Origin: Escherichia phage vB_EcoM_PHB13
Reading direction: 5' to 3' (one strand)
Length of the DNA: 64,000 nucleotides
Sequence record: MK573636
The position numbers and the translations under genes were made by a program. Of the stretch, positions 268 to 19,573 are shown in pieces (position 1 is the stretch's first letter; every line of letters begins with the position of its first letter). The notes below the pieces were generated by a model, which saw only the letters and a program-made list of their open reading frames with translations, did no database searches and was not told the origin of the DNA.

Positions 268-277
268 TGTTTGTTCA

Positions 278-305
278 AAGTCGCCCATAGTGGCGACTTT
301 TTTTG
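278..305 (+). terminator. rho-independent terminator
   Basis: GTCGCCC-loop-GGCGAC hairpin followed by a run of seven T. Confidence 0.6.
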
Positions 306-315
306 TTATTGGGTG

Positions 316-344
316 TTGACAATCTGATCTTGCCATAGCATAAT
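316..344 (+). promoter_or_regulatory. sigma70-like early promoter, degenerate member of the cassette family
   Basis: TTGACA, 17-bp spacer, CATAAT, then leader CATCGAAACGGAGG and ATG at 369. Confidence 0.5.
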
Positions 345-601: not shown

Positions 602-629
602 TTGACACTGAATAACGGGGTAGTAAGAT
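602..629 (+). promoter_or_regulatory. sigma70-like early promoter cassette
   Basis: TTGACA, 16-bp spacer, TAAGAT; -10 lies inside inverted repeat GGGGTAGTA/TACTCCC; conserved AGGAGAATCAAA before ATG 661. Confidence 0.55.
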
Positions 630-660
630 ACTCCCATCAAGAAAACAAAGGAGAATCAAA

Positions 661-879: not shown

Positions 880-908
880 TTGACAGCATGAAACGGGGGT
901 AGTAATAT
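880..908 (+). promoter_or_regulatory. sigma70-like early promoter cassette
   Basis: TTGACA, 17-bp spacer, TAATAT; perfect 7-bp inverted repeat GGGGGTA/TACCCCC around the -10; leader CATCGAAACGAAATACACTTTAAGGAGAATCAA. Confidence 0.55.
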
Positions 909-947
909 ACCCCCCATCGAAACGAAATACACTTTAAGGAGAATCAA

Positions 948-1105: not shown

Positions 1106-1134
1106 TTGACAGCATATCACGGGAGTAGTAAGAT
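1106..1134 (+). promoter_or_regulatory. sigma70-like early promoter cassette
   Basis: TTGACA, 17-bp spacer, TAAGAT; inverted repeat GGGAGTA/TACTCCC; AAGGAG before ATG 1168. Confidence 0.55.
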
Positions 1135-1167
1135 ACTCCCATACCAAAACAACTAAGGAGTATCAAG

Positions 1168-7610: not shown

Positions 7611-9093
7611 TATCATTAATCAGCTTGCAGCAACAGACAAAACATCGCTGAAAGAAAAGATCCTGAAAGAATCTGCAAGCAATGAAACGCTGAAAGAATG
7701 CTTTTATCTGGCATATTGCAAACAGGTTACGTTTGGCGTAAAGAAATACGATAAACCATCGCGTTATTCGTCTGTATTGTCTTTATCCGGTGCATTACAG
7801 GTCTTTAAAAATAAACTTGCCACGCGTCAAGTAACTGGTAACGCAGCATTACAGCTAGTTACCGATACTCTGACTTGCTTGTCAGAAGATGATGCTAAAG
7901 TTGCAATGATGGTCCTGAATCGTGATCTGGAATGTGGTTGTTCCGCTACCACTGCAAACAAGGTATGGAAGAAACTGATCCCCCAGCAACCGTGTCACCT
8001 TGCATCGTCATGTTCTGATAAGACTATTGCTAATATCAAGTATCCGGCGTATGCACAACTTAAAAGCGATGGCGCTCGTGGTATGGCTGATATTGACGGG
8101 GAAACATTAGCAATCTATACCCGTTCAGGTAATACCTATCAGGGACTTGATGATTTGTTTGCGGTTTTAGAGCGTCTACGAGGCCGTGGAATTGTTCTAG
8201 ATGGCGAATTGGTATATATGCCTACCCTTTCGCAAACACCAGCGCAGAACTTCGTTGAGAGCATTTATGATGGTACTCTGTCATGGATATTTGAAGAAGA
8301 GGAAATGCCATTAACGCCAGTAGCGGAAGCAGTAAAAGAATCCGTTGTTGCAGATCGTCAGACCGGAAATGGTATCCTCAACAAATCACTGAAAGGAACT
8401 ATTCCAAAAGAAGAAGCCCAATGTATTGTTTACACTGTCTGGGATGTTATCGACCGTGATGTGTATTACGGAAACGAGAAAGCAACGAAGCAATATAAAG
8501 ATCGATTCGAAGAACTAAAACAGATTGTTGAAGAACTTAACGATCCTCGTGTTCAGATAATCGAAAACACTGTAGTTAACAATATAGATGAAGCTCGCGA
8601 AGTATATCATCGCTATGTAAACATGGGCTTAGAAGGTATTATCCTTAAAAATTTACATGGTGTATTTGAAGATCGTCGCAGTAAAGATCAGGTTAAATTT
8701 AAAGAAGTGATTGACTTCGACGCGGAAATTGTTGATGTATATCCGCATAGTAAAGACCCTAATAAGGTAGGCGGTTTTACTGTCCGTAGTGCGTGCGGAC
8801 GAATGATGACTAACACCGGATCGGGATTGACTGACACCACAACCGAAAAAGGTGATGATGGTATTGAACGTGTAATTCCGTTCGATCGTCGAAATGAACT
8901 CGACCGAGAAATGTTATGGGCTGACCGTCATAACCTGATTGGAAAAGTCATTGAGATGACATGCAACGGGTATATCCGCAGCAAATCACGTAAAGAAGAT
9001 GAACCGGAGTTCTCTTTATTTCTCCCGATCATCAAACGTATTCGCTACGACAAGACCACTGCAAATACAGTAAAAGAGGTATTCGATGTGTGA
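7597..9093 (+). CDS. 30: ATP-dependent DNA ligase
   Basis: Active-site motif KYPAYAQLKSDGARG (KxDG); about 498 aa; C-terminus FSLFLPIIKRIRYDKTTANTVKEVF resembles T4 ligase; ORF track start 7591 is GTG, ATG with GAGGTG site at 7597. Confidence 0.85.
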   Translation: MSILNIINQLAATDKTSLKEKILKESASNETLKECFYLAYCKQVTFGVKKYDKPSRYSSVLSLSGALQVFKNKLATRQVTGNAALQLVTDTLTCLSEDDAKVAMMVLNRDLECGCSATTANKVWKKLIPQQPCHLASSCSDKTIANIKYPAYAQLKSDGARGMADIDGETLAIYTRSGNTYQGLDDLFAVLERLRGRGIVLDGELVYMPTLSQTPAQNFVESIYDGTLSWIFEEEEMPLTPVAEAVKESVVADRQTGNGILNKSLKGTIPKEEAQCIVYTVWDVIDRDVYYGNEKATKQYKDRFEELKQIVEELNDPRVQIIENTVVNNIDEAREVYHRYVNMGLEGIILKNLHGVFEDRRSKDQVKFKEVIDFDAEIVDVYPHSKDPNKVGGFTVRSACGRMMTNTGSGLTDTTTEKGDDGIERVIPFDRRNELDREMLWADRHNLIGKVIEMTCNGYIRSKSRKEDEPEFSLFLPIIKRIRYDKTTANTVKEVFDV

Positions 9094-9559
9094 TAATGAA
9101 GGGGCGAAAGCCCCTAAACCTAAAAAATTGTCAAAGAAAGAGCAACGCCAGATCCTGAAAATGAAATATGGTGGACGTTGTGCCTATTGTGGCGAGGAAC
9201 TAGGGGATCGCTGGCACGCAGACCACATCAAACCAGTATTGCGACGCTCAAAGGTAGTCTATGATGAAAATGGACGAATTGCCCGTAATGATGATGGATC
9301 GTGGAAGTATAAGGTTGTAGGAATGCATAAACCGGAACATGATATACTTGATAACATGAATCCGGCGTGTGTGCAATGCAATCTTTATAAAAGCTGTATG
9401 GGCTTAGAATACTGGCGTAAGTTTATACGCGAGAACTTCCAGAAGTACATTCAGCGAAATATGGGGTTGCGAGCGGCTAAACGCTTTGGCTTGCTGTCAA
9501 TTCATGACCAGCCAGTAGAATTTTATTTCGAAAAGTACGAGCGCGAAAATAAGGAGTAA
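9086..9559 (+). CDS. HNH nuclease
   Basis: CAYCGEE...HADHIKPV...NMNPACVQCNLYK: CxxC, H-x-DH, N, CxxC-N-x-x-K HNH core. Confidence 0.65.
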   Translation: MCDNEGAKAPKPKKLSKKEQRQILKMKYGGRCAYCGEELGDRWHADHIKPVLRRSKVVYDENGRIARNDDGSWKYKVVGMHKPEHDILDNMNPACVQCNLYKSCMGLEYWRKFIRENFQKYIQRNMGLRAAKRFGLLSIHDQPVEFYFEKYERENKE

Positions 9560-9566
9560 CCATTAT

Positions 9567-9911
9567 ATGTTCTTTATGTTTATCTATATCCTTTTTGTTT
9601 TCCTGGTAGGCATGTACGCAAGCCGTTTAAACCGTAGCGTTATCGGTTATGTTCTCCTATCTTTGATCATTAGCCCGTTGATCACCTTTATCATTTTGTT
9701 GGTGTTGGGTCCAACTAAATCATATGAACAGGAACAAGCAGACAAGCTAAAAGCAGAGATGGTAGAGAAACAATTTGTTCAACTGTATCTAGAAAACCCA
9801 GAGTTTGAGGAAGTTTCCACCCTTAAGCGAATGTATGACGATCTAACACGATACCCTAACTATCGAAATGTGCTGGCTATGGAAGAAGCCATTAAGCTCA
9901 TGAAAAAATAA
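9567..9911 (+). CDS. hypothetical membrane protein
   Basis: AAGGAG site; two predicted transmembrane helices in first 50 residues. Confidence 0.5.
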   Translation: MFFMFIYILFVFLVGMYASRLNRSVIGYVLLSLIISPLITFIILLVLGPTKSYEQEQADKLKAEMVEKQFVQLYLENPEFEEVSTLKRMYDDLTRYPNYRNVLAMEEAIKLMKK

Positions 9912-9924
9912 TTCAAAAAAGTTG

Positions 9925-9953
9925 TTGACAGGGGATCACGTATCCCCTATACT
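9925..9953 (+). promoter_or_regulatory. sigma70-like early promoter cassette
   Basis: AAAAAGTTGTTGACA, spacer GGGGATCACGTATCCCC (inverted repeat), TATACT; ATG at 9997. Confidence 0.6.
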
Positions 9954-9996
9954 ACACACATCAAAACGAAACACACTTTCTTAAGGAGAATCAAAA

Positions 9997-10308
9997 ATGA
10001 AATACATCGTAACGCTGCCAATGATTGACTTCGACGGAACCATGAACACCCAGAAGACCATGAGCGCGGAGAACCAACTGAAAAACGCTACCCTGATTCG
10101 TGAAGTTCGCAAGGCACTGGCAAAAGAATTTAACACCAAAATTCATTCTGTAACTGGCGAACGTTTCGCGGATCATCTTGATATCAATATCAAACCAGTG
10201 CGCAACGGTGTTATCTCTGTAACAACCAACCGCCCACATGCTGACGCTGATAATCTGACCGCTCGCGCAGAAGATGTAATTATGACCGTTATCATGGAAA
10301 AACTTTAA
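9997..10308 (+). CDS. hypothetical early protein; paralog of 13313..13600
   Basis: 103 aa; shares REVRKALAKEFNTK / LVRDAVAKEFNFK block with 13313 ORF. Confidence 0.5.
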   Translation: MKYIVTLPMIDFDGTMNTQKTMSAENQLKNATLIREVRKALAKEFNTKIHSVTGERFADHLDINIKPVRNGVISVTTNRPHADADNLTARAEDVIMTVIMEKL

Positions 10309-10317
10309 AAAAAGTTG

Positions 10318-10347
10318 TTGACAGGGGAGGTTAAACTCCCCTATAAT
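10318..10347 (+). promoter_or_regulatory. sigma70-like early promoter cassette
   Basis: TTGACA, 18-bp spacer GGGGAGGTTAAACTCCCC, TATAAT. Confidence 0.6.
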
Positions 10348-10381
10348 ACACACATACCGAAACGAACTAGGAGAATCAATT

Positions 10382-10561
10382 ATGAACTTCAACGAAATCA
10401 TCGCTAAAATCCGCTACAACGAAGAAACCATTGAACTGATGCAAAACAATATCACCAATGGATATATGATTGCAGCGTCACAAGAAATCATTGATTTGAC
10501 GGTAGCAGAAAATGCTCAGTTGAAACATCAACTTTCAACGGCTGGCGTGATTGTTATGTAA
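10382..10561 (+). CDS. small hypothetical protein, 59 aa, not in ORF track
   Basis: ATG after cassette GGAGAATCAATT; translation MNFNEIIAKIRYNEETIELMQNN... Confidence 0.45.
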   Translation: MNFNEIIAKIRYNEETIELMQNNITNGYMIAASQEIIDLTVAENAQLKHQLSTAGVIVM

Positions 10562-10578
10562 TAAAGAGAGGTGACTAA

Positions 10579-10881
10579 ATGGCAAAAGTTCAGGTAGGTG
10601 AGGTCTTCAAAATGGAAGACCATACCGTGGAAGAGATGAAAGGCGCAGTATTGAAAGTAATTAATTCAATGTGGCGTAGTGTGCTTTACATCAACTTTAT
10701 CGACGGTGATGTGTGGTGGGCTAGCGATAGCGATAAATGGGATATCAAGTTCTACAAAGGTCATACTCACTGGTTAGGATCAGAGGATGTTGTAGAAGTT
10801 CTGGCGGTTGATGTTATGCCAGGAGAGATCGAGAATCTTAGCGGAACAGCAAAAGAAGCATTGACACGCCATTTTGCGTAA
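10579..10881 (+). CDS. HxHW-family small protein, copy 1 of 6
   Basis: 100 aa; GHTHW ... VLAVDVMPGE signature shared with five downstream paralogs. Confidence 0.55.
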   Translation: MAKVQVGEVFKMEDHTVEEMKGAVLKVINSMWRSVLYINFIDGDVWWASDSDKWDIKFYKGHTHWLGSEDVVEVLAVDVMPGEIENLSGTAKEALTRHFA

Positions 10882-10937
10882 TGTAGTATAACAATAATCG
10901 GGAGGGTAATACTCTCCCACAAATTGAGGATAATATT

Positions 10938-11129
10938 ATGTGTGGTCTTAAAATGGTTGCTGAATATAAGCGAACTGGTAATGTTATGATGTATCGACGC
11001 AATGCCAACGAAGAATGGAAACCTTCAAACCGCATTAAATCCATCCAGACGTTTATGAATAACATCAAAGAAAACCTTTTCGTTAAGCGTGCTGGTGCTG
11101 GACATTGGGAAGTTTACGAAGCTGTATAA
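10938..11129 (+). CDS. hypothetical protein
   Basis: 63 aa; preceded by degenerate cassette hairpin GGGAGGGTAATACTCTCCC and GAGGA site. Confidence 0.4.
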   Translation: MCGLKMVAEYKRTGNVMMYRRNANEEWKPSNRIKSIQTFMNNIKENLFVKRAGAGHWEVYEAV

Positions 11130-11145
11130 TTTTGAGGAAAATATT

Positions 11146-11454
11146 ATGGAACAAACTAAGCTATTTGTCGCGGAACCTTTTGTAAGAGACAATAAAAATC
11201 TGGCTAAAACAATCATTTTGTATTCGGATTGGATCTTTTATATCGATGGTAATTTAGACGTATATTGTCGCACAGCTCCAACTGATTCGTTTTATATCGA
11301 AGAAAACGACACTCATAATCATTGGTATGATGGAAACGACAAAACCGAACTAGCTGTTGTCCTAGCGTCAGACGTAGAACCTGAAAACGCGGACAAAGTA
11401 GCAGACAAATTTATGAAGTACGCATATAAAGATAAAAATGAAGATGAAGAATAA
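11146..11454 (+). CDS. HxHW-family small protein, copy 2 of 6
   Basis: THNHW ... LAVVLASDVEPENADKVADKF; ORF track start 11089 trimmed to ATG 11146. Confidence 0.5.
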   Translation: MEQTKLFVAEPFVRDNKNLAKTIILYSDWIFYIDGNLDVYCRTAPTDSFYIEENDTHNHWYDGNDKTELAVVLASDVEPENADKVADKFMKYAYKDKNEDEE

Positions 11455-11461
11455 AAAGTTG

Positions 11462-11490
11462 TTGACAGGGGATCACCGATCCCCTATAAT
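11462..11490 (+). promoter_or_regulatory. sigma70-like early promoter cassette
   Basis: TTGACA, spacer GGGGATCACCGATCCCC, TATAAT. Confidence 0.6.
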
Positions 11491-11524
11491 ACACACATAC
11501 CAACGAGATATAGGAGAATCAAAA

Positions 11525-11692
11525 ATGTTCCAGACTAAAGCAGAATGCGAAGCATACATTGTAGCAAACCACGGTGAAGACTACCTGAAATTCGATATCG
11601 TAGTAGCACAGAAGATCACCGGAATGGTTGCAAAATATCTGGGTGTTAAAGAAGGTTACTATCCTAGCAACGCACCAGAAATTAACAAATAA
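11525..11692 (+). CDS. small protein, 55 aa; near-identical paralog of 14783..14950
   Basis: MFQTKAECEAYIVANHGEDYLKFDIVVAQKITGMVAKYLGVKEGYYPSNAPEINK versus MFETKAACEAYIIETHGEDYLKFDIVVAQKIVGMVAKYLGVKEGYYPSNAPEINK; ORF track start 11438 lies inside the promoter. Confidence 0.55.
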   Translation: MFQTKAECEAYIVANHGEDYLKFDIVVAQKITGMVAKYLGVKEGYYPSNAPEINK

Positions 11693-11695
11693 TAG

Positions 11696-11724
11696 TTGAC
11701 AATGATTAAAGGGAGTAGTAAGAT
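11696..11724 (+). promoter_or_regulatory. sigma70-like early promoter cassette
   Basis: TTGACA, 17-bp spacer, TAAGAT; inverted repeat GGGAGTA/TACTCCC identical to the copy at 1121. Confidence 0.55.
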
Positions 11725-11756
11725 ACTCCCATCAAGACAACAAACGGAGAATCAAA

Positions 11757-11936
11757 ATGAAAGCTATCGAAGTTCAGAAGTACATGGAAATCATCGTTGA
11801 AAGTAAAGCACATTTAGTGTTGACTACTCACGTAGGATATGATAAAAATGTGCATATGCTGGTAGACAACATCGGCTGGATGAAGTTTAATCCTAACGAG
11901 AACGTACAAGCTCAAGAAATGACCATCCCTTTCTAA
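11757..11936 (+). CDS. small hypothetical protein, 59 aa, not in ORF track
   Basis: ATG after cassette GGAGAATCAAA; translation MKAIEVQKYMEIIVESKAHLVLTTHVGYDKNVHM... Confidence 0.45.
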   Translation: MKAIEVQKYMEIIVESKAHLVLTTHVGYDKNVHMLVDNIGWMKFNPNENVQAQEMTIPF

Positions 11937-11948
11937 GAGGAATATATT

Positions 11949-12227
11949 ATGATGCGAATTACTGCAACGCTGGATAAGACACACAAAGAAAGATTTTTCG
12001 GTATGATCTTAAAAACGCCGATTTTCGATAATTACCTTTATGTTGACTATAACGGTCACATTAGCTATAAATGTAAAAATGATATTCGTGATTCCTTTGG
12101 TGATAAATCACAAGCCGATATTCACGATCATTGGTGGAACCATGACGAACCTTTACGGGTTATCGCAGTTGATGTAAAAACAACAAAAGAAGCTGATAAG
12201 GTAGTGAATGATTATGAGCAAATTTAA
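11949..12227 (+). CDS. HxHW-family small protein, copy 3 of 6
   Basis: IHDHWWNHDEPLRVIAVDVKTTKEADKVV; AAGAGGA site. Confidence 0.55.
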   Translation: MMRITATLDKTHKERFFGMILKTPIFDNYLYVDYNGHISYKCKNDIRDSFGDKSQADIHDHWWNHDEPLRVIAVDVKTTKEADKVVNDYEQI

Positions 12228-12423
12228 AGATTATAAAGCATATCAACAGATCTTGCGAGTATACGAACCAGAGTTCGCCGAAAAGATGATGGAAGATGCA
12301 TCAAAATGCCCGTCCTTTTCTGGAAACAAAAACCATTATTCTACTGGTATTGTATCATGGAAAGAAACCGCATATACTCAACAATGGATAGATGTGTTTT
12401 CAAAAACTCTTGATTGGTGTTAA
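12208..12423 (+). CDS. small protein; tandem paralog A
   Basis: MSKFKDYKAY ... MMEDA ... W; paralogous to the next gene. Confidence 0.45.
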   Translation: MIMSKFKDYKAYQQILRVYEPEFAEKMMEDASKCPSFSGNKNHYSTGIVSWKETAYTQQWIDVFSKTLDWC

Positions 12424-12425
12424 TT

Positions 12426-12641
12426 ATGAGTAAATTTAAAGATTATCGAGCATATAAAGCGATCTGCGATATATTCGATGAAAAGACCGCTCATGCAATG
12501 ATGGAAGATGCAGAACAATATGAATCATTCGTCAATTCCAAAGATTGCACAGTAAACGAGGTTGTGTGCTGGAAAGATACAAAGTATGAAGAAAAATGGA
12601 TTACTGTGTATTACGGAGAACTAGAATATGAAATTAACTAA
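12426..12641 (+). CDS. small protein; tandem paralog B
   Basis: MSKFKDYRAY ... MMEDA ... W; ORF track start 12414 is TTG, ATG at 12426. Confidence 0.45.
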   Translation: MSKFKDYRAYKAICDIFDEKTAHAMMEDAEQYESFVNSKDCTVNEVVCWKDTKYEEKWITVYYGELEYEIN

Positions 12642-12948
12642 AAAGATTTTCCCAGAATTGCGTAACTGTCTGTTACTGGTTACTGAATATAAACCTTATA
12701 CGATCTACTTGTATGTTGATGAAAATCTGAAAATCCGTTACTATGATTATACGTCTCCAGTAATGAGATCATTTGCTCACGCGATAGCAAACAATTGTAT
12801 GAATCATAATCATTGGGTAAGTGATAATGATCATGATGCGTCAGAAGTTGTAGTGATCGCATGGAATCTATCACCAGCGGAAGCAGATCAAGCACGCATT
12901 AAGCATTATGCGAAAAACAATTGGTTTGACCTTATAAGTGAGGACTAA
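12628..12948 (+). CDS. HxHW-family small protein, copy 4 of 6
   Basis: MNHNHWVSDNDHDASEVVVIAWNLSPAEADQARIKHY. Confidence 0.5.
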   Translation: MKLTKKIFPELRNCLLLVTEYKPYTIYLYVDENLKIRYYDYTSPVMRSFAHAIANNCMNHNHWVSDNDHDASEVVVIAWNLSPAEADQARIKHYAKNNWFDLISED

Positions 12949-12952
12949 TATT

Positions 12953-13231
12953 ATGTTCAAAGTAGGTGATAAGTTTATTCTTAGTCGTGATATTCTCCCT
13001 AATCTGAAAGGTTGTATCATCAATCCTAGTAAAAATTCATGGTTTTATCTGTTTATCGACGACAAACTGAATGTACGCGCCGAATATAAAGAAGGTCTTC
13101 GTACTGGTCTAGGTTTCTTTCACGATCATGATCATAGCCATTGGCTAAACGGTGGATTCGAAGCAACGGTGCTAGCGGTTGATGTGACTTACACGAACAT
13201 CATAGAAAAATATCAAAAAATTATTTTATAA
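12953..13231 (+). CDS. HxHW-family small protein, copy 5 of 6
   Basis: FHDHDHSHWLNGGFEATVLAVDVTY; GAGGA site 9 nt upstream of ATG 12953. Confidence 0.5.
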   Translation: MFKVGDKFILSRDILPNLKGCIINPSKNSWFYLFIDDKLNVRAEYKEGLRTGLGFFHDHDHSHWLNGGFEATVLAVDVTYTNIIEKYQKIIL

Positions 13232-13237
13232 AAAGTG

Positions 13238-13266
13238 TTGACATAAGATCGGGTGTATAGCATAAT
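13238..13266 (+). promoter_or_regulatory. sigma70-like early promoter cassette
   Basis: TTGACA, 17-bp spacer, CATAAT inside perfect 8-bp inverted repeat GGGTGTAT/ATACACCC. Confidence 0.55.
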
Positions 13267-13312
13267 ACACCCATCGAAACGAGATACACTTTCTAACTAG
13301 GAGAATCAAATT

Positions 13313-13600
13313 ATGGCATACATCACTATCACTCTGAAAGTTAACAAATTTGCTCACGCTGCACACGAAACCGATAATGCAATCCGTAACAACAAGTTTG
13401 CACGTCTGGTACGCGATGCAGTAGCTAAAGAGTTCAACTTCAAATTTGCAGATGGTAAAGTTATCACTAAATGGACTCATGACGGCGAAACTAAAGTAGA
13501 ACTTGCTGACAACTTCGCAAATCAGGAATATGCACACCGCCGCATCAATGAAATCATCAGCGATGAACTCTACTACGGAGTACAGGAAGGTTTGTTTTAA
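13313..13600 (+). CDS. hypothetical early protein; paralog of 9997..10308
   Basis: 95 aa; shared AKEFN block. Confidence 0.5.
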   Translation: MAYITITLKVNKFAHAAHETDNAIRNNKFARLVRDAVAKEFNFKFADGKVITKWTHDGETKVELADNFANQEYAHRRINEIISDELYYGVQEGLF

Positions 13601-13604
13601 TATA

Positions 13605-13626
13605 GGGGGCGTTAAGCCCCTTTTAA
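13605..13626 (+). terminator. rho-independent terminator
   Basis: GGGGGCGTTAAGCCCC hairpin followed by TTTT. Confidence 0.55.
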
Positions 13627-13649
13627 TCTATCTGAATGAGGATATCACT

Positions 13650-13958
13650 ATGAAAAATCTTGTAGTTGAATTTACCCGCGAGAATTTACCACAATTTCGC
13701 AATTCTCTGCTTAAACTAGAGAACAGTAATTATGATGTATATTTTTACATCACCGAAGATCTAGAGATCCTTTACGCTGATTACCCAGGTCCGATCCGTA
13801 CCTTCGAAACCGCATCAAAATATAAAAATGTGCACGGTCATGAGCACTGGTTACGAGAAAACCCAGGTCGCAAGAAAGCACGCGTTAAAGTGTTGGCGAT
13901 TGACATAACACCAGCATACGCCGACCGGATTGCACAGAATGATTATTTGTCTAAATGA
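13650..13958 (+). CDS. HxHW-family small protein, copy 6 of 6
   Basis: VHGHEHWLRENPGRKKARVKVLAIDITPAYADRIAQNDY; ORF track start 13503 trimmed to ATG 13650 with GAGGA site. Confidence 0.5.
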   Translation: MKNLVVEFTRENLPQFRNSLLKLENSNYDVYFYITEDLEILYADYPGPIRTFETASKYKNVHGHEHWLRENPGRKKARVKVLAIDITPAYADRIAQNDYLSK

Positions 13959-13965
13959 TTTCATT

Positions 13966-13991
13966 AGCCGACCTTAGTGTCGGCTTTTTTA
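13966..13991 (+). terminator. rho-independent terminator
   Basis: GCCGAC-loop-GTCGGC hairpin followed by TTTTTT. Confidence 0.6.
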
Positions 13992-14016
13992 TTGCATAAA
14001 ATTTAAAAAAAAGGCA

Positions 14017-14045
14017 TTGACACCAGATCACGCCTATAGCATAAT
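14017..14045 (+). promoter_or_regulatory. sigma70-like early promoter cassette, one hairpin arm lost
   Basis: TTGACA, 17-bp spacer, CATAAT, ATACACCC arm only; conserved leader CATCGAAACGAGATACCACTTAGGAGAATCAAA. Confidence 0.5.
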
Positions 14046-14085
14046 ACACCCATCGAAACGAGATACCACTTAGGAGAATCAAACA

Positions 14086-14355
14086 ATGGCGCTGACTAAA
14101 ACCACTACCAACTTTGCAAAACGTCACGGCTTCGACCTTGAAATCAATAGCTTTAACGATTACACCCTTCTGTGTGTATATGAAATCGAAAATGATTGCG
14201 AGTGGATGTTCAGCTATCGCGTAAACGAAGACGGATCTTTCACTTGGAACGGAAATATCTATCTTGCACAGGAAGTAAAAGAAGAACTTCCGGCGACTAT
14301 CAAAGATGAGAAACATTTACGTCAAGTTTTAAAATTTATTTCTGAAAATATCTAA
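14086..14355 (+). CDS. hypothetical early protein
   Basis: 89-aa ORF after cassette. Confidence 0.5.
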   Translation: MALTKTTTNFAKRHGFDLEINSFNDYTLLCVYEIENDCEWMFSYRVNEDGSFTWNGNIYLAQEVKEELPATIKDEKHLRQVLKFISENI

Positions 14356-14362
14356 AAAGTTG

Positions 14363-14391
14363 TTGACACCAAAGTAAGAACATAGCATAAT
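14363..14391 (+). promoter_or_regulatory. sigma70-like early promoter cassette
   Basis: AAAAAGTTGTTGACA, 17-bp spacer, CATAAT. Confidence 0.5.
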
Positions 14392-14424
14392 ACACCCATA
14401 CCGAAACGAACTGGAGAATCAAAA

Positions 14425-14706
14425 ATGAAATTCATCAAAGCAACCGAAATCCTGAAAAACAAAGAAGCATACATCGGAAACATCGTTGGTATGAACATTC
14501 GCGGCGCTGGTAGCCAGTGGACCAAACTGGTTGATGTTAAAGCTAAAGGCGATAAAATTGAGTTCACTGTAAAAATGCTTACTCATAACGCACATATGGG
14601 TATCAAGACAAAAACGATGGCAGCAGATAAAAGCATCAACTATCAGGATCTGGGTGATTGGCTGAACTGGTGCAAAATGCACAACATCGAAACTAATCAC
14701 GAATAA
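14425..14706 (+). CDS. hypothetical early protein
   Basis: 93-aa ORF after cassette. Confidence 0.5.
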   Translation: MKFIKATEILKNKEAYIGNIVGMNIRGAGSQWTKLVDVKAKGDKIEFTVKMLTHNAHMGIKTKTMAADKSINYQDLGDWLNWCKMHNIETNHE

Positions 14707-14720
14707 TTTTAAAAAAGTTG

Positions 14721-14749
14721 TTGACGGGGATCGGGAGATCCCCTATAAT
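14721..14749 (+). promoter_or_regulatory. sigma70-like early promoter cassette
   Basis: TTGACG, spacer GGGGATCGGGAGATCCCC, TATAAT. Confidence 0.55.
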
Positions 14750-14782
14750 ACACACATACCGAAACGAAATAGGAGAATCAAA

Positions 14783-14950
14783 ATGTTCGAGACTAAAGCA
14801 GCATGTGAAGCATATATCATTGAAACCCACGGCGAAGATTATCTGAAATTTGACATTGTAGTAGCACAGAAGATTGTAGGGATGGTTGCGAAATACCTCG
14901 GAGTTAAAGAAGGTTACTATCCAAGCAACGCACCGGAAATTAACAAATAA
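14783..14950 (+). CDS. small protein, 55 aa; near-identical paralog of 11525..11692; not in ORF track
   Basis: See 11525 feature; ATG after AGGAGAATCAAA. Confidence 0.5.
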   Translation: MFETKAACEAYIIETHGEDYLKFDIVVAQKIVGMVAKYLGVKEGYYPSNAPEINK

Positions 14951-14965
14951 TTTTTATAAAAAGTG

Positions 14966-14994
14966 TTGACAGGGGAGACACCCTCCCCTATAAT
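14966..14994 (+). promoter_or_regulatory. sigma70-like early promoter cassette
   Basis: TTGACA, spacer GGGGAGACACCCTCCCC, TATAAT. Confidence 0.6.
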
Positions 14995-15034
14995 ACAACC
15001 ATCAAGACGAGATACCACTTAGGAGAATCAAACA

Positions 15035-15286
15035 ATGGCTAACATCGAAACCGCAAAGAAAATCGCTAAAGACCTGAACGTTAAAGGCTTCCGTAAACTG
15101 AAATTACAGCGTGTACGCTACACCATCGGCAAACAGTGCTCTTTCATGAGCGAAGAAGTTGCTAACAGCCTCATTGATAACCTGATTGCGGCTGGCTGGG
15201 AAGTTGCGGATCTGAAAACTTGCCGCGAACTGGCTAACAAAGGTCTTTTAGATTCTGTTACTATAAAACCAATGGGGGCAGCGTGA
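15035..15286 (+). CDS. hypothetical protein, first gene of a five-gene operon
   Basis: 83 aa; first 16 nt (ATGGCTAACATCGAAA) identical to the start of the 17164 gene. Confidence 0.5.
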   Translation: MANIETAKKIAKDLNVKGFRKLKLQRVRYTIGKQCSFMSEEVANSLIDNLIAAGWEVADLKTCRELANKGLLDSVTIKPMGAA

Positions 15287-15528
15287 AAAGAAAATTAATT
15301 AAACGAAATAAGGAATTTTTGAATAACTGCATTAAGGTTGCTAATGGTTGGCCTTTGTTCCTCTTCCTTTATGATTGGTATTCTAAACAATCGGTAGAGG
15401 AAACACGACACTATAAGAAGATCAGAAAAGAATCATATACAAAACAAGGCCGCATTAACGGACTTTACTTAATGTGGCACGGCAAAGAACCTTCTAAAAT
15501 CTGTGTTGGATTAAAGGGGCGTATATGA
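15283..15528 (+). CDS. basic hypothetical protein
   Basis: 81 aa; apparent GTG start overlapping upstream stop; no internal ATG until residue 64, so start is uncertain. Confidence 0.35.
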   Translation: MKRKLIKRNKEFLNNCIKVANGWPLFLFLYDWYSKQSVEETRHYKKIRKESYTKQGRINGLYLMWHGKEPSKICVGLKGRI

Positions 15529-16241
15529 AACAAAAATTAATATTCTGCAACTTTGACGGATCGGGGATAATGGGGCTAGAATGGGCTAAAGCAGGTCATA
15601 AGGTGATCTGCTTTAATGCAGATGATGCCGACCACGGCACATACAAAAAGTATAATACCCGATTTGAACATCCAAACATTACATATGTAAACACATGGAT
15701 TGATTTGGATTGGCTGGAAAGAGCAATGGACCTTGAATGGGGAAAACCAGATATTATCTTTGCATTCCCACCGTGCACCAATTTAGCTGTTAGTGGCGCT
15801 GCACACTTTGAACGAAAGAAACGAGAACAAGGACCATTAATTCAAGTTCATGATGTAAGGGCAGCTAAAATAACCGCTTATTTGGGCGAATGGTTAGAAG
15901 TTCCCTACATGATAGAGAATCCTGTAAGCGTTATCTCTAGCATGTGGCGTAAGCCTGATTACATGTTCCACCCGTGGGAATATGGCGGTTATTTGCCGGA
16001 ATATGATATACATCCTACGTTTCCTGAGTATATTGCCTCCCGTGATATGTACCCGAAAAAGACTTGCTTATGGACGGGACAAGGTTTTATAATGCCAGAA
16101 AAGAAACCTATACCGATTAATAAAGGGTACAGTAAACAGCATTCTAAGCTAGGCGGGAAAGGAACCAGAACAAAGACTATCAGGTCACTTACCCCGCGAG
16201 GATTCGCAAAGGCAGTATTTGAAGCCAATAAGGATCTATGA
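15525..16241 (+). CDS. cytosine-C5 methyltransferase-like protein (mini Dcm fold)
   Basis: Motif I-like LIFCNFDGSG, motif IV-like FAFPPCTNLAVSGAA (Pro-Cys), motif VI-like MIENPVS, C-terminal RSLTPRGFAKAV; only 238 aa with no room for a target-recognition domain. Confidence 0.45.
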   Translation: MKQKLIFCNFDGSGIMGLEWAKAGHKVICFNADDADHGTYKKYNTRFEHPNITYVNTWIDLDWLERAMDLEWGKPDIIFAFPPCTNLAVSGAAHFERKKREQGPLIQVHDVRAAKITAYLGEWLEVPYMIENPVSVISSMWRKPDYMFHPWEYGGYLPEYDIHPTFPEYIASRDMYPKKTCLWTGQGFIMPEKKPIPINKGYSKQHSKLGGKGTRTKTIRSLTPRGFAKAVFEANKDL

Positions 16242-16570
16242 TGGGATTGTTTAAGTATTCGCTAACGTCAAATTACGATAAACAAGGTCATTGCATCAGT
16301 TGCCCTGATTGTCGTAGCCATAACATCGAAAGCAAGATCACCGATCATATTGATGGACTTTGGTCGCCAGCAAGCGAGATAGAATACTATTGCGCTGATT
16401 GTGGAATTGTAGTAGCATATTGGGCATACGGATCATATGATCCTTACTTCCAGATGGGAGAGCGTTCAATCCCTGCTCTTATCTGGAGAATTAAGAACAA
16501 TATCCGCCATTCATGGGATGAGTTCTTAAAAGATATTGATTTACGTGATGATCCATTCAGGAGACTATAA
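16238..16570 (+). CDS. zinc-ribbon protein
   Basis: CISCPDC ... CADCG (two CxxC pairs); start overlaps upstream stop. Confidence 0.4.
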   Translation: MMGLFKYSLTSNYDKQGHCISCPDCRSHNIESKITDHIDGLWSPASEIEYYCADCGIVVAYWAYGSYDPYFQMGERSIPALIWRIKNNIRHSWDEFLKDIDLRDDPFRRL

Positions 16571-16571
16571 C

Positions 16572-17090
16572 ATGAACCGTTTGACGCCTAAACGCCGTTA
16601 CTATACCAATACTAAAAACTTTGTCATCTCTGTTTATGAGGCGTGGTTAGAAGATGGCTATATCAACATGAACCCAGATTACCAGCGTCCTTTGGTATGG
16701 GACACCGAAAACAAACGTATGTTTATCGAAAACCTGATTAATGATTTTCCGGTTGGTGCTATCGCAATGGCTAAGATTGATGATGGCTCTCGCTATGAGA
16801 TCGAAATCGTGGACGGTAAACAGCGTTTAAACGCAATATTCTCCTTTATGAAAGATGAGTTTAGCATTGCTGGTAATGATGATTCTATGTTGTATTACAG
16901 TGATTTTACGCCAGCAGAAAAGCGACGTTTTCGCAATCTCGGACTACCCGCGATCATGATGGAAGAGAGCACACGAGAAGATCGATTAGAATATTTCTAC
17001 AAAACAAACTTTTTCGGTGTGCCTCAATCAGAAGATCATCGCCAGCATGTGATTGCATTATTGCAAGATGAGCAATTAAAAAATAACTAA
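16572..17090 (+). CDS. DUF262 / ParB-like nuclease-superfamily domain protein
   Basis: NPDYQRPLVWD ... EIVDGKQRLNAI (YQR-W and DGxQR motifs); ORF track start 16536 trimmed to ATG 16572 with AGGAG site. Confidence 0.6.
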   Translation: MNRLTPKRRYYTNTKNFVISVYEAWLEDGYINMNPDYQRPLVWDTENKRMFIENLINDFPVGAIAMAKIDDGSRYEIEIVDGKQRLNAIFSFMKDEFSIAGNDDSMLYYSDFTPAEKRRFRNLGLPAIMMEESTREDRLEYFYKTNFFGVPQSEDHRQHVIALLQDEQLKNN

Positions 17091-17097
17091 AAAGTTG

Positions 17098-17127
17098 TTG
17101 ACAGGGGGATCGGTGATCCCCTATAAT
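17098..17127 (+). promoter_or_regulatory. sigma70-like early promoter cassette
   Basis: TTGACA, 18-bp spacer GGGGGATCGGTGATCCCC, TATAAT. Confidence 0.6.
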
Positions 17128-17163
17128 GCAAACATACCGAAACGAACTACTAAGGAGTATCAA

Positions 17164-17376
17164 ATGGCTAACATCGAAATCATCATTACCGACGTAACTT
17201 ATGACCGCATTAACGAAATCGGTACTGCTTTGCTAGAAGATGGAACAACTCGCACCATCAACTACGCAGAATACGTTGAAATGCGCGGTTGTATTAAACG
17301 AGTAGGAAAATATATCCTGATTGAAAAAGACTATTCAGGATACACATTAGAGCAATTGCTCGATGGTGCATTATAA
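17164..17376 (+). CDS. hypothetical protein
   Basis: 70 aa; ORF track start 17095 lies in the promoter; ATG at 17164 after AAGGAG. Confidence 0.5.
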   Translation: MANIEIIITDVTYDRINEIGTALLEDGTTRTINYAEYVEMRGCIKRVGKYILIEKDYSGYTLEQLLDGAL

Positions 17377-17382
17377 TAAATT

Positions 17383-17403
17383 GGGGCGTTAAGCCCCCTT
17401 TTC
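17383..17403 (+). terminator. rho-independent terminator
   Basis: GGGGCGTTAAGCCCC hairpin followed by CTTTTC. Confidence 0.5.
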
Positions 17404-17410
17404 ATAAATA
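17403..17410 (+). promoter_or_regulatory. possible T4-type late promoter variant for alt
   Basis: CATAAATA (7 of 8 match to TATAAATA) about 33 nt upstream of the alt ATG. Confidence 0.3.
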
Positions 17411-17443
17411 TAGGTTTATAGGTTATCAACTAGAGGATATAAA

Positions 17444-19495
17444 ATGTTTAACTTAGAAATCGACGATCTAATGATTGAATCTTTCGAGAAATGGCTGTTG
17501 ACGGAAGAGGAAGAAAACTTTGGCAGTATTGCTCCGGTACAGTGCTTAAAGCCTAAGCAGAATCCTAAACAGCTTTTTGCAGTACAGACACGCGATAAAG
17601 ATGTGATTGTCCGTCTTTGTAACTTCACCAACAAAACACCTAAAATCATTCGTATGGGTGACAAGACCGCACATGTTGTACTGTGCGAAATGAACAAAAG
17701 CGGTCGTATTGTACAGCTTAAAAATGGTCTAGGCGATAACCCGATTGCAGTTATGGCAAGTGCTTTTGATGTGGTTATGGAAACAGCCCGTAAAGCGCAA
17801 TTAGACGCTGTTATGTTCCGTTTTAACGTATCCCGCATGAAAGGTAAGACCGAACTGGTTAAGCGCGTTATAGAGCGTTTGGTGCGTCGTACACCGAAGT
17901 TTGAAGTATTCCAGCAGGAAGTAATGACCAGCAAAAAGATCGCTTTAGTTGTTGTCAAGCGTCGAGGTATGGCGATTGATAAGATTAAAGGGATTAAACT
18001 TGATGAATCCTTGTTCACTAAAGTAGAAAGTGATTTAGGTGATCGCTGGGTATCTAAAGCTACTGGCGAATCTCTGACTAAAGATGAAGCATATGCGGCT
18101 AGTCTTGTGTCAGAAGAAGAACGAAACGCGGAAGCAGAACAACGCGTAGCGGCTAAATCTCGTTTGACTAAAGAAGAAATGCTGAAAACTCAAGCGACCT
18201 ATAACAGCGACTATGTGAATCATCCAGAAAAAATTAATCTTAAACCGGAAGAAGATATCACCGAAGCAGAACCTAAGAAACAGTTTAATACTCTGATTGA
18301 CCGTCAAGCCTTAGAACGTTCAACCGCCCGTTCTCTGAATGACTGGACAAGTGATATTATCACTCGCTATGGTTTCATGCGTACTATTTTTGAAAGCGAA
18401 GCCGATGCAAAATACGCAGTAAGCGAACTGGTAAAAGTTCAGGACCAATATGATCCGTTGTCTGCGGAAGTTATCGCAGCATCAATCAAACGCTTAAAAG
18501 AAATCATGAGCGAGGAAGTATTCGAAAACAAGATCACTGCGTTGGCAATGGATCGAGTAGACCAGTCTATGCCAGCAGATGTAAAAGCTGAAATGCTGCG
18601 TAGTCATATCACACAGATTAAAACCGATGCCCTTCGTAATGTTGCCTCCGGTATGTTTGAAGCAATTGCAAGTAACATGGGTGAAATGATGGCAGATATT
18701 GATCTTGACCTACCAGGCGCGGAAGGTTTTGTGTTGAGCGAATATGCGGATGCAGCATACATCAATATGAACAACTTCCTAACCGATCGTAAGCTGGATG
18801 AGTTCGAAGGGATCGCTGACCCAGAAGAATTGGTCAAGATGTGCGACGCACTGGATAATGCCTTCGCTAACTATGGCGTTAAACTTGATCCGGGTACTAT
18901 TCTGTATCGTGGTATGGACTTCCGGTCTCAAATGTGGGAAACTGCACGTAAGCAAAAAGCGTTTTACTTTAAAAACTATGTGAGCACTTCCCTTGCACCT
19001 AACATTTTTGGCGGCTGGAATGCAAACGTGGCTAGTGCCGTTGCTGGTGTTGATTCTATGGCTGGCTCTCGCGGTGAAGGTGGCGCGAATGTTGCTTTCT
19101 CCATTGCTGGCGCGGAAAACATCCCTGTATTGCCAGTAGGTAACAAAGCATTTGCTTACAAAGAATGCGAGATTTTACTTCCTCGCGGTGTTGTGTTATC
19201 CTTTGATACGGTAACTCGTGCTACGGCATCGACGGATTCACAAGAAACATATTACATTGAGGCACATATTATGAACAAAAGTGAACTGGCAGCATTACAA
19301 GAATCTGGCGAAATGATCGCGGATGGTGATGCATTCATCCGTGAAGGTGTTGTTAAACCTGCTTCTGACCTGTCTTTCTCCAGATTCATTACAGAAGCTA
19401 AAACCGAACGTAAGAAAGCAGATAAGGCAACTCTACGTCAGCTTATCGCTGATCTGGTGTCTGTAGACGCAATGCCAGATAAATTTAAAATGTAA
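17444..19495 (+). CDS. alt: ADP-ribosyltransferase Alt
   Basis: 683 aa (T4 Alt is about 682); C-terminal ART triad LYRGM / YVSTSL / ECEILLPRG; position between gene 30 region and gene 54 as in T4. Confidence 0.75.
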   Translation: MFNLEIDDLMIESFEKWLLTEEEENFGSIAPVQCLKPKQNPKQLFAVQTRDKDVIVRLCNFTNKTPKIIRMGDKTAHVVLCEMNKSGRIVQLKNGLGDNPIAVMASAFDVVMETARKAQLDAVMFRFNVSRMKGKTELVKRVIERLVRRTPKFEVFQQEVMTSKKIALVVVKRRGMAIDKIKGIKLDESLFTKVESDLGDRWVSKATGESLTKDEAYAASLVSEEERNAEAEQRVAAKSRLTKEEMLKTQATYNSDYVNHPEKINLKPEEDITEAEPKKQFNTLIDRQALERSTARSLNDWTSDIITRYGFMRTIFESEADAKYAVSELVKVQDQYDPLSAEVIAASIKRLKEIMSEEVFENKITALAMDRVDQSMPADVKAEMLRSHITQIKTDALRNVASGMFEAIASNMGEMMADIDLDLPGAEGFVLSEYADAAYINMNNFLTDRKLDEFEGIADPEELVKMCDALDNAFANYGVKLDPGTILYRGMDFRSQMWETARKQKAFYFKNYVSTSLAPNIFGGWNANVASAVAGVDSMAGSRGEGGANVAFSIAGAENIPVLPVGNKAFAYKECEILLPRGVVLSFDTVTRATASTDSQETYYIEAHIMNKSELAALQESGEMIADGDAFIREGVVKPASDLSFSRFITEAKTERKKADKATLRQLIADLVSVDAMPDKFKM

Positions 19496-19512: not shown

Positions 19513-19550
19513 TTGACTCAAACGGGGACTAGTTTTATACTAGCCCCGTT
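19513..19550 (+). promoter_or_regulatory. sigma70-like promoter overlapping a terminator-like hairpin
   Basis: TTGACT, 17-bp spacer, TATACT embedded in ACGGGGACTAG / CTAGCCCCGT hairpin followed by TTTTCTGTT. Confidence 0.45.
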
Positions 19551-19573
19551 TTCTGTTATATGGGAGGTTTAAA

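Follow-up and report, generated by a model that had tools for sequence, protein, structure and literature searches.

Stem-loop promoter cassettes in the hyperplastic region of a Krischvirus genome conserve arm pairing and probably limit transcriptional read-through

The stretch of DNA analysed here comprises 64,000 nucleotides (nt) of the genome of Escherichia phage vB_EcoM_PHB13 (sequence record MK573636; this whole stretch is referred to as the window) and carries a family of repeated intergenic cassettes in which a GC-rich palindrome is embedded in a sigma70-type promoter. The window derives from a Krischvirus, i.e., an RB49-like T4-type coliphage: a megablast search with 9000-18000 gave 94-96% identity to Krischvirus genomes, and every one of the 58 phage records matched belongs to this genus. 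Its segment 9925-17127 is collinear with open reading frame (ORF) 211 to ORF185 of RB49 (NC_005066) and sits between the DNA ligase and alt genes, and the ORFs flanking the cassettes are small and have no Pfam family. It is in this same hyperplastic region, RB49 ORF211 to ORF185, that the elements named "promoter-early stem-loop" (PeSL) for RB49 and phi1 were originally defined (Arbiol, Comeau, Kutateladze, Adamia and Krisch, 2010, Genome Biol Evol 2:140; PMC2839356). A PeSL consists of an AT-rich tract, a sigma70-consensus promoter, a polyG/polyC stem-loop, a Shine-Dalgarno sequence and an ORFan, where the stem-loop may take one of five positions (in the gap separating the -35 box from the -10 box, over either box, or just upstream or downstream of them), and about 50 of them are found per genome, concentrated in hyperplastic regions ahead of ORFans (PMC2839356). 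The cassettes in the window are PeSLs of RB49-like phages, and as such have already been described in the same genus and region.

This assignment rests on several features found together in the window, namely a promoter with an AT-rich tract, a stem-loop, an intergenic position in the hyperplastic region, synteny with RB49, and insertions and deletions of ORFans. When compared with the extracted RB49 intergenic regions, the hairpin at 9930-9948 is identical to the stem-loop of PeSL211/210, and PeSL206/205, whose promoter activity was measured at about 13,000 Miller units (PMC2839356), has its ortholog in the cassette at 11462. Other cassettes correspond to RB49 210/209, 205/204, 199/198, 195/194, 194/193, 192/191 and 191/190, and the one-to-one correspondence spans 211/210 to 186/185. 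No Rfam family matched positions 1-22000 at its gathering score.

With an nhmmer profile of the cassette, 13 strong copies were found on the + strand, plus two weak ones, the TTGAC of the strong copies starting at 602, 880, 1106, 9925, 10318, 11462, 11696, 13238, 14017, 14363, 14721, 14966 and 17098. The parts follow each other in the order stop codon, A-run, (G)TTGACA, a spacer of 16-18 nt, a TATAAT-like hexamer, a ACACACATACCGAAACGA-like leader, GGAGAATCAA and ATG; the two hexamers match 9-12 of 12 consensus positions, and the upstream A-run is present in every copy. We distinguish class A, where the stem fills the -35/-10 spacer, from class B, where it encloses the -10. Class A has six copies (9925, 10318, 11462, 14721, 14966 and 17098), in which a stem of 7-8 base pairs (bp) exactly fills the spacer and the A of TTGACA pairs with the T of TATAAT, while in the five class-B copies (602, 880, 1106, 11696 and 13238) the stem lies around the -10 and its 3' arm is the discriminator. 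The remaining strong copies, at 14017 and 14363, have no hairpin. The individual elements are as follows, with folding free energies (dG) in kcal/mol:

9925..9953, + strand: PeSL, TTGACA-17-TATACT; hairpin 9930-9948, AGGGGAT-cacgt-ATCCCCT, dG -10.1 to -11.1; ortholog of PeSL211/210
10318..10347, + strand: PeSL, TTGACA-18-TATAAT; hairpin 10323-10342, AGGGGAG-gttaaa-CTCCCCT; slot of RB49 PeSL210/209
11462..11490, + strand: PeSL, TTGACA-17-TATAAT; hairpin 11467-11485, AGGGGATC-acc-GATCCCCT; ortholog of PeSL206/205, where the RB49 loop is GGT
14721..14749, + strand: PeSL, TTGACG-17-TATAAT; hairpin 14726-14743, GGGGATC-ggga-GATCCCC, which uses the last -35 base; RB49 PeSL192/191
14966..14994, + strand: PeSL, TTGACA-17-TATAAT; hairpin 14971-14989, AGGGGAG-acacc-CTCCCCT, dG -16.6 with flanks, z -4.1; RB49 PeSL191/190
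17098..17175, + strand: chimeric PeSL; hairpin 17105-17121; 5' part of ORF187/186 and 3' part of ORF186/185 (CTACTAAGGAGTATCAA-ATG)
602..634, + strand: PeSL, TTGACA-16-TAAGAT; imperfect hairpin 617-634 around the -10 with one G·U, dG -7.3
880..914, + strand: PeSL, TTGACA-17-TAATAT; hairpin 895-914, GGGGGTA/TACCCCC, around the -10
1106..1140, + strand: PeSL, TTGACA-17-TAAGAT; hairpin 1121-1140, GGGAGTA/TACTCCC, around the -10
11696..11730, + strand: PeSL, TTGACA-17-TAAGAT; hairpin 11711-11730, GGGAGTA/TACTCCC; RB49 PeSL205/204
13238..13272, + strand: PeSL, TTGACA-17-CATAAT; hairpin 13251-13272, GGGTGTAT/ATACACCC; RB49 PeSL199/198
13966..14045, + strand: hairpin-less cassette; terminator hairpin 13966-13985 with T-run, then TTGACA-17-CATAAT at 14017-14045
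14363..14391, + strand: hairpin-less cassette without upstream terminator; hairpin absent in 17 of 17 genomes
277..344, + strand: canonical terminator 277-300, then hairpin-less TTGACA-17-CATAAT at 316-344
19513..19553, + strand: promoter, TTGACT-17-TATACT; 11-bp bulged hairpin 19520-19551 around the -10, then TTTTCTGTT; dG -20.6, z -4.3

Hairpins in these promoters occur far above chance. As controls, promoters of unrelated phage were collected by a pattern scan of IMG/VR for GTTGACA-N16-19-TATAATACAC, with no Krischvirus cassettes among the matches listed; a perfect spacer stem of at least 7 bp was present in one, and of at least 6 bp in four, of the 157 unrelated phage promoters among those matches, as against a stem of at least 7 bp in all six class-A cassettes of the window. 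In RNA folding, the 11 hairpin cassettes have z-scores of -2.0 to -4.3 with one exception, the imperfect copy at 602 (-0.5), and the hairpin-less cassettes have -0.05 and -1.6. Across the 64 kb, 38 hairpin calls, corresponding to about 28 distinct perfect GC-containing hairpins of at least 7 bp, compare with about 5 calls (standard deviation 3) in first-order Markov random sequence, and 10 of the window's perfect hairpins lie in cassette promoters; these were counted by our own enumeration, general repeat finding being swamped by overlapping AT palindromes.

The first-pass annotation of the window had quoted nine of these palindromes and proposed that their two arms change together, so that secondary structure or a dimeric binding site, and not primary sequence, would be under selection. 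All nine are present, seven at exactly the positions given and two displaced by one base: the GGGGATC arms exist, yet they start at 14726 (the last G of TTGACG) instead of 14727 and at 17105 instead of 17104. The joint change of the arms is borne out by a sample of 17 Krischvirus genomes with 199 cassette instances, grouped by downstream ORF, and what is conserved in them is the pairing, not the arm sequence. Ten arm types occur (GGGGATC, GGGGAT, GGGGAG, GCGGGGA, CGGGGA, GGGAGTA, GGGGGTA, GGGTGTAT, GGGGATAT and GGGAGTAT), all perfectly complementary to their partners (70 of 70 pairs), whereas random re-pairing of the arms leaves a mean of 71% paired and reaches the observed value in none of 20,000 permutations. 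Class A taken alone shows modest covariation: pairing holds in 90.8% of cells, and its score of 0.156, compared with 0.077 in shuffles, is reached by 2 of 500 of them. Class B was tested by an outer-anchored arm table and permutation, as a MAFFT promoter alignment puts the 5' arms of its subclasses two columns apart; here stem position 4 is A-T, T-A or G-C and position 5 is G-C or A-T, and the RB49 pair GGGGGTA/TACTCCC is a G·U intermediate between two perfect class-B types. At the ORF198 slot, 12 genomes carry GGGTGTAT/ATACACCC and five carry GGGGATAT/ATATCCCC, a difference of two compensated pairs with no broken intermediate. The 5' arm of the class-B subclasses further differs in register, with a shift of two positions against the hexamers, and the 3' arm remains in the discriminator; the arm thus follows its partner and not the geometry of the promoter.

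The presence of a hairpin is a property of the slot. Eleven slots retain it with hardly an exception among their alleles; the weighted mean dG ranges from -11 to -14 kcal/mol, and the weakest allele has -5.4. The hairpin at 14721 is identical in nine genomes, while two slots are hairpin-less in 17 of 17 genomes and their spacer drifts freely. At the 210/209 slot, GGGGATC-NNN-GATCCCC in RB49, kvi and others stands in place of the GGGGAG hairpin of the window, which implies that the whole hairpin was exchanged. The outer GGG/CCC hardly varies and keeps one polarity throughout, with G on the 5' and C on the 3' side. An allele at the ORF186 slot of kvi (L245, at about 10218) and FL37 (L253), GGGGGATCGGTGATCCCCC-ATAAT, gains a fifth G:C pair and loses the first T of the -10, and is a trade-off between stem and promoter. 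Dam sites (GATC) in the arms were considered as a lead and dropped, as the window has 387 of them against 359 expected from a Markov model, neither avoided nor specially enriched.

In contrast to the flanks, the loops of the GGGGATC-NNN-GATCCCC hairpins are hypervariable: orthologs differ at a fraction of 0.51 of loop sites and of 0.08-0.13 in the flanks (the alleles were taken by an arm-fixed pattern, so that only these loop and flank values are usable). Such loops lie at 11474-11476 and 17112-17114 of the window and in the orthologous cassettes of L001-L003 and L242-L254. Loop alleles at orthologous slots form exact reverse-complement pairs (ACC/GGT, GCC/GGC and ACA/TGT), and the chance of at least three such pairs among eight random triplets is 0.002, which points either to loops inverting now and then by way of a DNA hairpin or to cassettes exchanging sequence.

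Recombination between cassettes is seen at 17098, where a 5' part derived from the ORF187/186 cassette is continued, past a crossover in the shared CATACCGAAACGAA, by a 3' part from the ORF186/185 cassette, and ORF186 is missing. The chimera implies that ORF186 was deleted by recombination between the two neighbouring cassettes, a deletion also found in JK32, KFS-EC and PTE-Eco09. RB49 ORF192 is likewise absent from the window (between 14706 and 14721), ORF191 is absent in JK32 and Brandy, and ORF210 in several genomes, the ORF191 and ORF210 deletions each leaving one hybrid cassette. These deletions are the PeSL-mediated modular shuffling of the published model (PMC2839356), and the suggestion of the first-pass annotation that the palindromes are recombination targets moving the cassettes agrees with this model in so far as the cassettes do recombine; it is the homology of the roughly 100-bp cassette that recombines, however, and not demonstrably the palindrome.

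What the hairpins do within the cassettes follows in part from their layout. The same annotation had argued that a promoter spacer is not transcribed and that the palindromes therefore cannot be RNA terminators, which holds only for the promoter's own transcript and is wrong here: the cassettes are tandem and co-oriented, with intergenic gaps of about 65-120 nt, so that each spacer is transcribed by read-through from the cassette upstream. The hairpins lie 15-20 nt after each stop codon and end at or before the start site of their own promoter, and are therefore present only in read-through RNA. As a whole, the cassettes are best explained as composite promoter/terminator PeSLs, a reading we consider probable, and the likeliest function of the hairpin, again with fair assurance, is termination or attenuation. 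From stop codon to start codon, each cassette comprises an A-rich UP-like tract, the sigma70 promoter, the 7-8 bp hairpin, a conserved, unstructured A/C-rich leader with GGAG, and the ATG. Its own mRNA would start just past the hairpin, and only polymerases arriving from the upstream cassette would transcribe the latter; the read-through RNA is predicted to fold (-10 to -14 kcal/mol) and to attenuate or terminate transcription where the next promoter lies or immediately beyond it, the A/U-rich -10 hexamer taking the place of a U-tract. Each ORFan would in this way be insulated as its own transcription unit at no extra intergenic length, and the near-identical cassettes of about 100 bp would double as sites of homologous recombination by which ORFans may be deleted, inserted or swapped.

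One line of evidence on this function is the distribution of the hairpins relative to canonical terminators. Among the 199 instances, 158 have the hairpin only, 22 an upstream canonical terminator only, 18 neither and a single one both, and where a hairpin-less cassette has such a terminator, it lies about 25 nt upstream. In the window, 4 of 7 hairpin-less promoters and none of 11 hairpin promoters are preceded by a terminator, and the arrangement of the 13966 terminator with its hairpin-less promoter is common to all 17 genomes. The internal hairpin thus substitutes for a separate terminator, and this near-exclusive distribution fits a terminator or attenuator role. In line with this, the hairpin around the -10 at 19513, between alt and the next ADP-ribosyltransferase gene, is followed by a true U-tract and constitutes an ordinary intrinsic terminator within a promoter; Makalu_001 carries a terminator annotation for it, and the element is a PeSL whose stem-loop doubles as a canonical intrinsic terminator. 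The hairpins reach -10 to -14 kcal/mol as RNA and -5.6 to -7.4 kcal/mol as DNA, a roughly twofold difference in stability, and the four alleles with internal defects that keep the stem are all G·U in the sense strand and none A·C, their core hairpins being 3.8-4.7 kcal/mol better in sense than in antisense. In the literature, the RB49 study reports that the PeSL211/210 stem-loop, to which the hairpin at 9930-9948 is identical, when placed between a promoter and lacZ, lowers expression in vivo like rrnB T1 (PMC2839356).

Several points weigh against termination or attenuation. The asymmetry between G·U and A·C amounts to 3-4 events against none, which is non-significant and suggestive only. No class-A or class-B hairpin is followed by a U-run (5 T in 8), UAUAAU or AUCGAAAC following instead, and such a run occurs only at 19513, 13966, 277, 13604 and 17383; neither a consensus terminator scan nor the ARNOLD-based annotation of G2494 calls any class-A or class-B hairpin. 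Terminator activity comes from one stem-loop in one plasmid reporter (PMC2839356), and the drop in lacZ could equally reflect RNA processing. Our literature search found no Krischvirus transcriptome or 3'-end map, stability alone does not explain why G strictly stands on the 5' arm and C on the 3' arm, and the slot at 14363 has neither hairpin nor terminator in any of the 17 genomes. What the sequences themselves show is the identity with PeSLs, the conserved pairing and the deletions through cassettes; terminator and promoter activity are shown in the literature for single RB49 examples only (PMC2839356), and for every copy we infer termination as the selected function, and likewise the 3'-end positions.

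The main rival is that the hairpin is a stability or processing element of RNA 3' ends, in which read-through RNA is trimmed back to the stem and the upstream ORFan mRNA is protected, as by REP-type stem-loops. Stable RNA structures without a U-tract, 15-20 nt after stop codons, are what such an element would look like, and the published lacZ assay does not separate termination from processing or polarity. The near mutual exclusion with canonical terminators, on the other hand, suggests equivalence with real terminators, as does the U-tract hairpin in the same position at 19513, so that we consider 3'-end protection unlikely as the sole function; the two roles do not exclude each other.

Roles at the level of DNA are minor rivals. 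The palindrome might be a dimeric protein site, either the operator of a regulator, as the first-pass annotation had also proposed, or a target through which a recombination protein recognizes GGGG...CCCC to start shuffling, as Arbiol et al. speculate (PMC2839356). The nearly invariant outer GGG/CCC with its constant polarity and the overlap with the promoter, as is the case for operators, would suit this idea. An operator would be expected to have a conserved half-site, fixed spacing and a fixed register, and the cassettes have none of these: the ten arm types vary the inner half-site, arms of 6-8 bp and loops of 3-6 nt vary the spacing, the 5' arm shifts by two positions against the hexamers between subclasses, and G·T mismatches are tolerated. 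Ten neighbouring ORFs were scanned and none has a Pfam DNA-binding domain. To our knowledge, no candidate binding protein exists, and a protein site appears quite improbable.

Still less probable is that the palindrome acts in the DNA itself, as a cruciform or a GC-rich spacer that tunes the strength or the supercoiling response of its own promoter. Its position exactly between or around the hexamers, the loop flips, which suggest the formation, if only now and then, of intrastrand DNA hairpins, and the kvi/FL37 allele, which lengthens the stem at the expense of the first -10 T, speak for it. Arms of 7-8 bp are short for stable cruciform extrusion, which makes the cruciform offered in the first-pass annotation unlikely, the DNA hairpins being the -5.6 to -7.4 kcal/mol ones noted above. 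Moreover, strong promoters of the same family are palindrome-free at 14017 and 14363, conserved as such in 17 genomes, and the several positions of the stem relative to the hexamers are hard to fit to one geometric effect on RNA polymerase. A neutral origin, in which quasi-palindrome template switching and gene conversion among some 50 paralogous cassettes keep the arms matched, would account for the whole hairpins swapped between alleles with neighbouring spacer changes (ORF198 and ORF209 slots), the flipping loops and the clear recombination of the cassettes, yet it can practically be dismissed: each slot stably has or lacks its hairpin in 17 genomes, slots without one drift and gain no arms, the near mutual exclusion with canonical terminators is left without a neutral explanation, and the published reporter shows an effect (PMC2839356).

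Compatible with the composite promoter/terminator reading, and offered here very tentatively as a further and doubtful proposal, the palindromes may extrude, or fold in the course of replication, as DNA hairpins with sufficient frequency in vivo for their loops to flip, and may serve as the entry points from which PeSL-by-PeSL recombination starts. If so, they could be entry sites, e.g., for a structure-specific nuclease such as a T4-type endonuclease VII; the stem-loop itself, beyond cassette homology, would drive the shuffling of ORFans, and the reverse-complement loop alleles would be its footprint.

Other observations concern the genes and cassettes around these elements. At 10861-10925, a promoter-like TTGACA-17-TAGTAT, whose -35 lies inside the end of the upstream ORF, is accompanied by an imperfect hairpin, GGGAGgg...CTCTCCC, downstream of the -10 (at 10900), and may be a PeSL of the 'downstream of -10' subclass or a decayed cassette. 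The near-alike 55-residue paralogs at 11527-11694 and 14783-14950 (MFQTKAECEAY.../MFETKAACEAY...), each preceded by a class-A cassette, look like a duplicated gene-plus-cassette unit. Six tandem paralogous ORFans (10579-10881, 11146-11454, 11949-12227, 12628-12948, 12953-13231 and 13650-13958), with 22-26% identity, have an invariant H-x-H-W motif and a V(L/I)A(V/I)D(V/I) motif in common; the four of them that were scanned have no Pfam family, and several have no cassette of their own and follow directly after the previous gene. The hyperplastic region also codes for a GmrSD_N (DUF262) domain protein (E-value 4e-20; 16572-17090, with 15525-16241 adjoining), and the gene beside it, which has no Pfam match here, bears the annotation of a C-5 cytosine DNA methyltransferase in relatives. 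Outside the genus, repeated TTGACA-N17-TATAATACACACATA...GGAGCA cassettes occur in unrelated environmental phage contigs from IMG/VR (L039, L068, L072 and L094), some with spacer hairpins of 5-7 bp, e.g., AGCACCTGAAAAGGTGC and CGGGAGCGATCCCG; contig L094 has no blastn match among deposited phages.

PeSLs are an example of a large lytic phage that fits a promoter together with a transcription stop within a single intergenic gap of about 70 nt, and of repeated regulatory cassettes that can shuffle accessory genes. The PeSL work of 2010 and 2014 already covers this genus and region, and the small points that we add, namely a quantitative measure of pairing conservation over 17 genomes, the near-exclusive distribution of internal hairpins and canonical terminators, the G·U intermediates and the loop flips, sharpen the published model and leave it unchanged. 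Compensatory change, covariation, cruciforms and loop flips go unmentioned in the two PeSL papers (PMC2839356; PMC4122927), and the reverse-complement loop flips and the G·U intermediates between arm types appear to be new. As standard terminator predictors miss hairpins without a U-tract, the annotation of Krischvirus genomes understates the number of transcription-unit boundaries.

Compared with known systems, the cassettes are closest to the PeSLs of RB49 and phi1, with which they share the genus, the region ORF211-185, the anatomy and the link to insertions and deletions of ORFans (PMC2839356). Several are identical or near-identical to named RB49 PeSLs, namely 211/210, 206/205, 205/204, 199/198, 195/194, 194/193, 192/191 and 191/190, and the differences lie only in alleles, i.e., another hairpin at 210/209 and a flipped loop at 206/205, besides the ORF186 and ORF192 that the window lacks. 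With intrinsic terminators the hairpins share a GC-rich stem of 7-8 bp, a short loop and a position 15-20 nt past the stop codon; whereas intrinsic terminators have a U-tract, however, classes A and B have the -10 hexamer or the discriminator instead, and the cassette family also uses true intrinsic terminators, either upstream (13966 and 277) or embedded (19513). The PeSL and PmSL elements of T4/PST and KVP40/nt-1 are likewise composites of promoter and stem-loop in hyperplastic regions and are linked to insertions and deletions (Comeau, Arbiol and Krisch, 2014; PMC4122927). In contrast to the window, where the stem is inside the promoter, their stem-loop lies just upstream of it, their arms are A3-4G3/C3T3-4 or AGNA/TCNT, and their promoter consensus is unlike that of the window (PMC4122927). 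Finally, integron gene cassettes with attC and the 'morons' of lambdoid phages, a comparison made by Arbiol et al. themselves (PMC2839356), also consist of single small accessory genes that move with their own expression signals, but an integrase or site-specific recombinase plays no part here, exchange appearing to be homologous recombination among the repeated cassettes.

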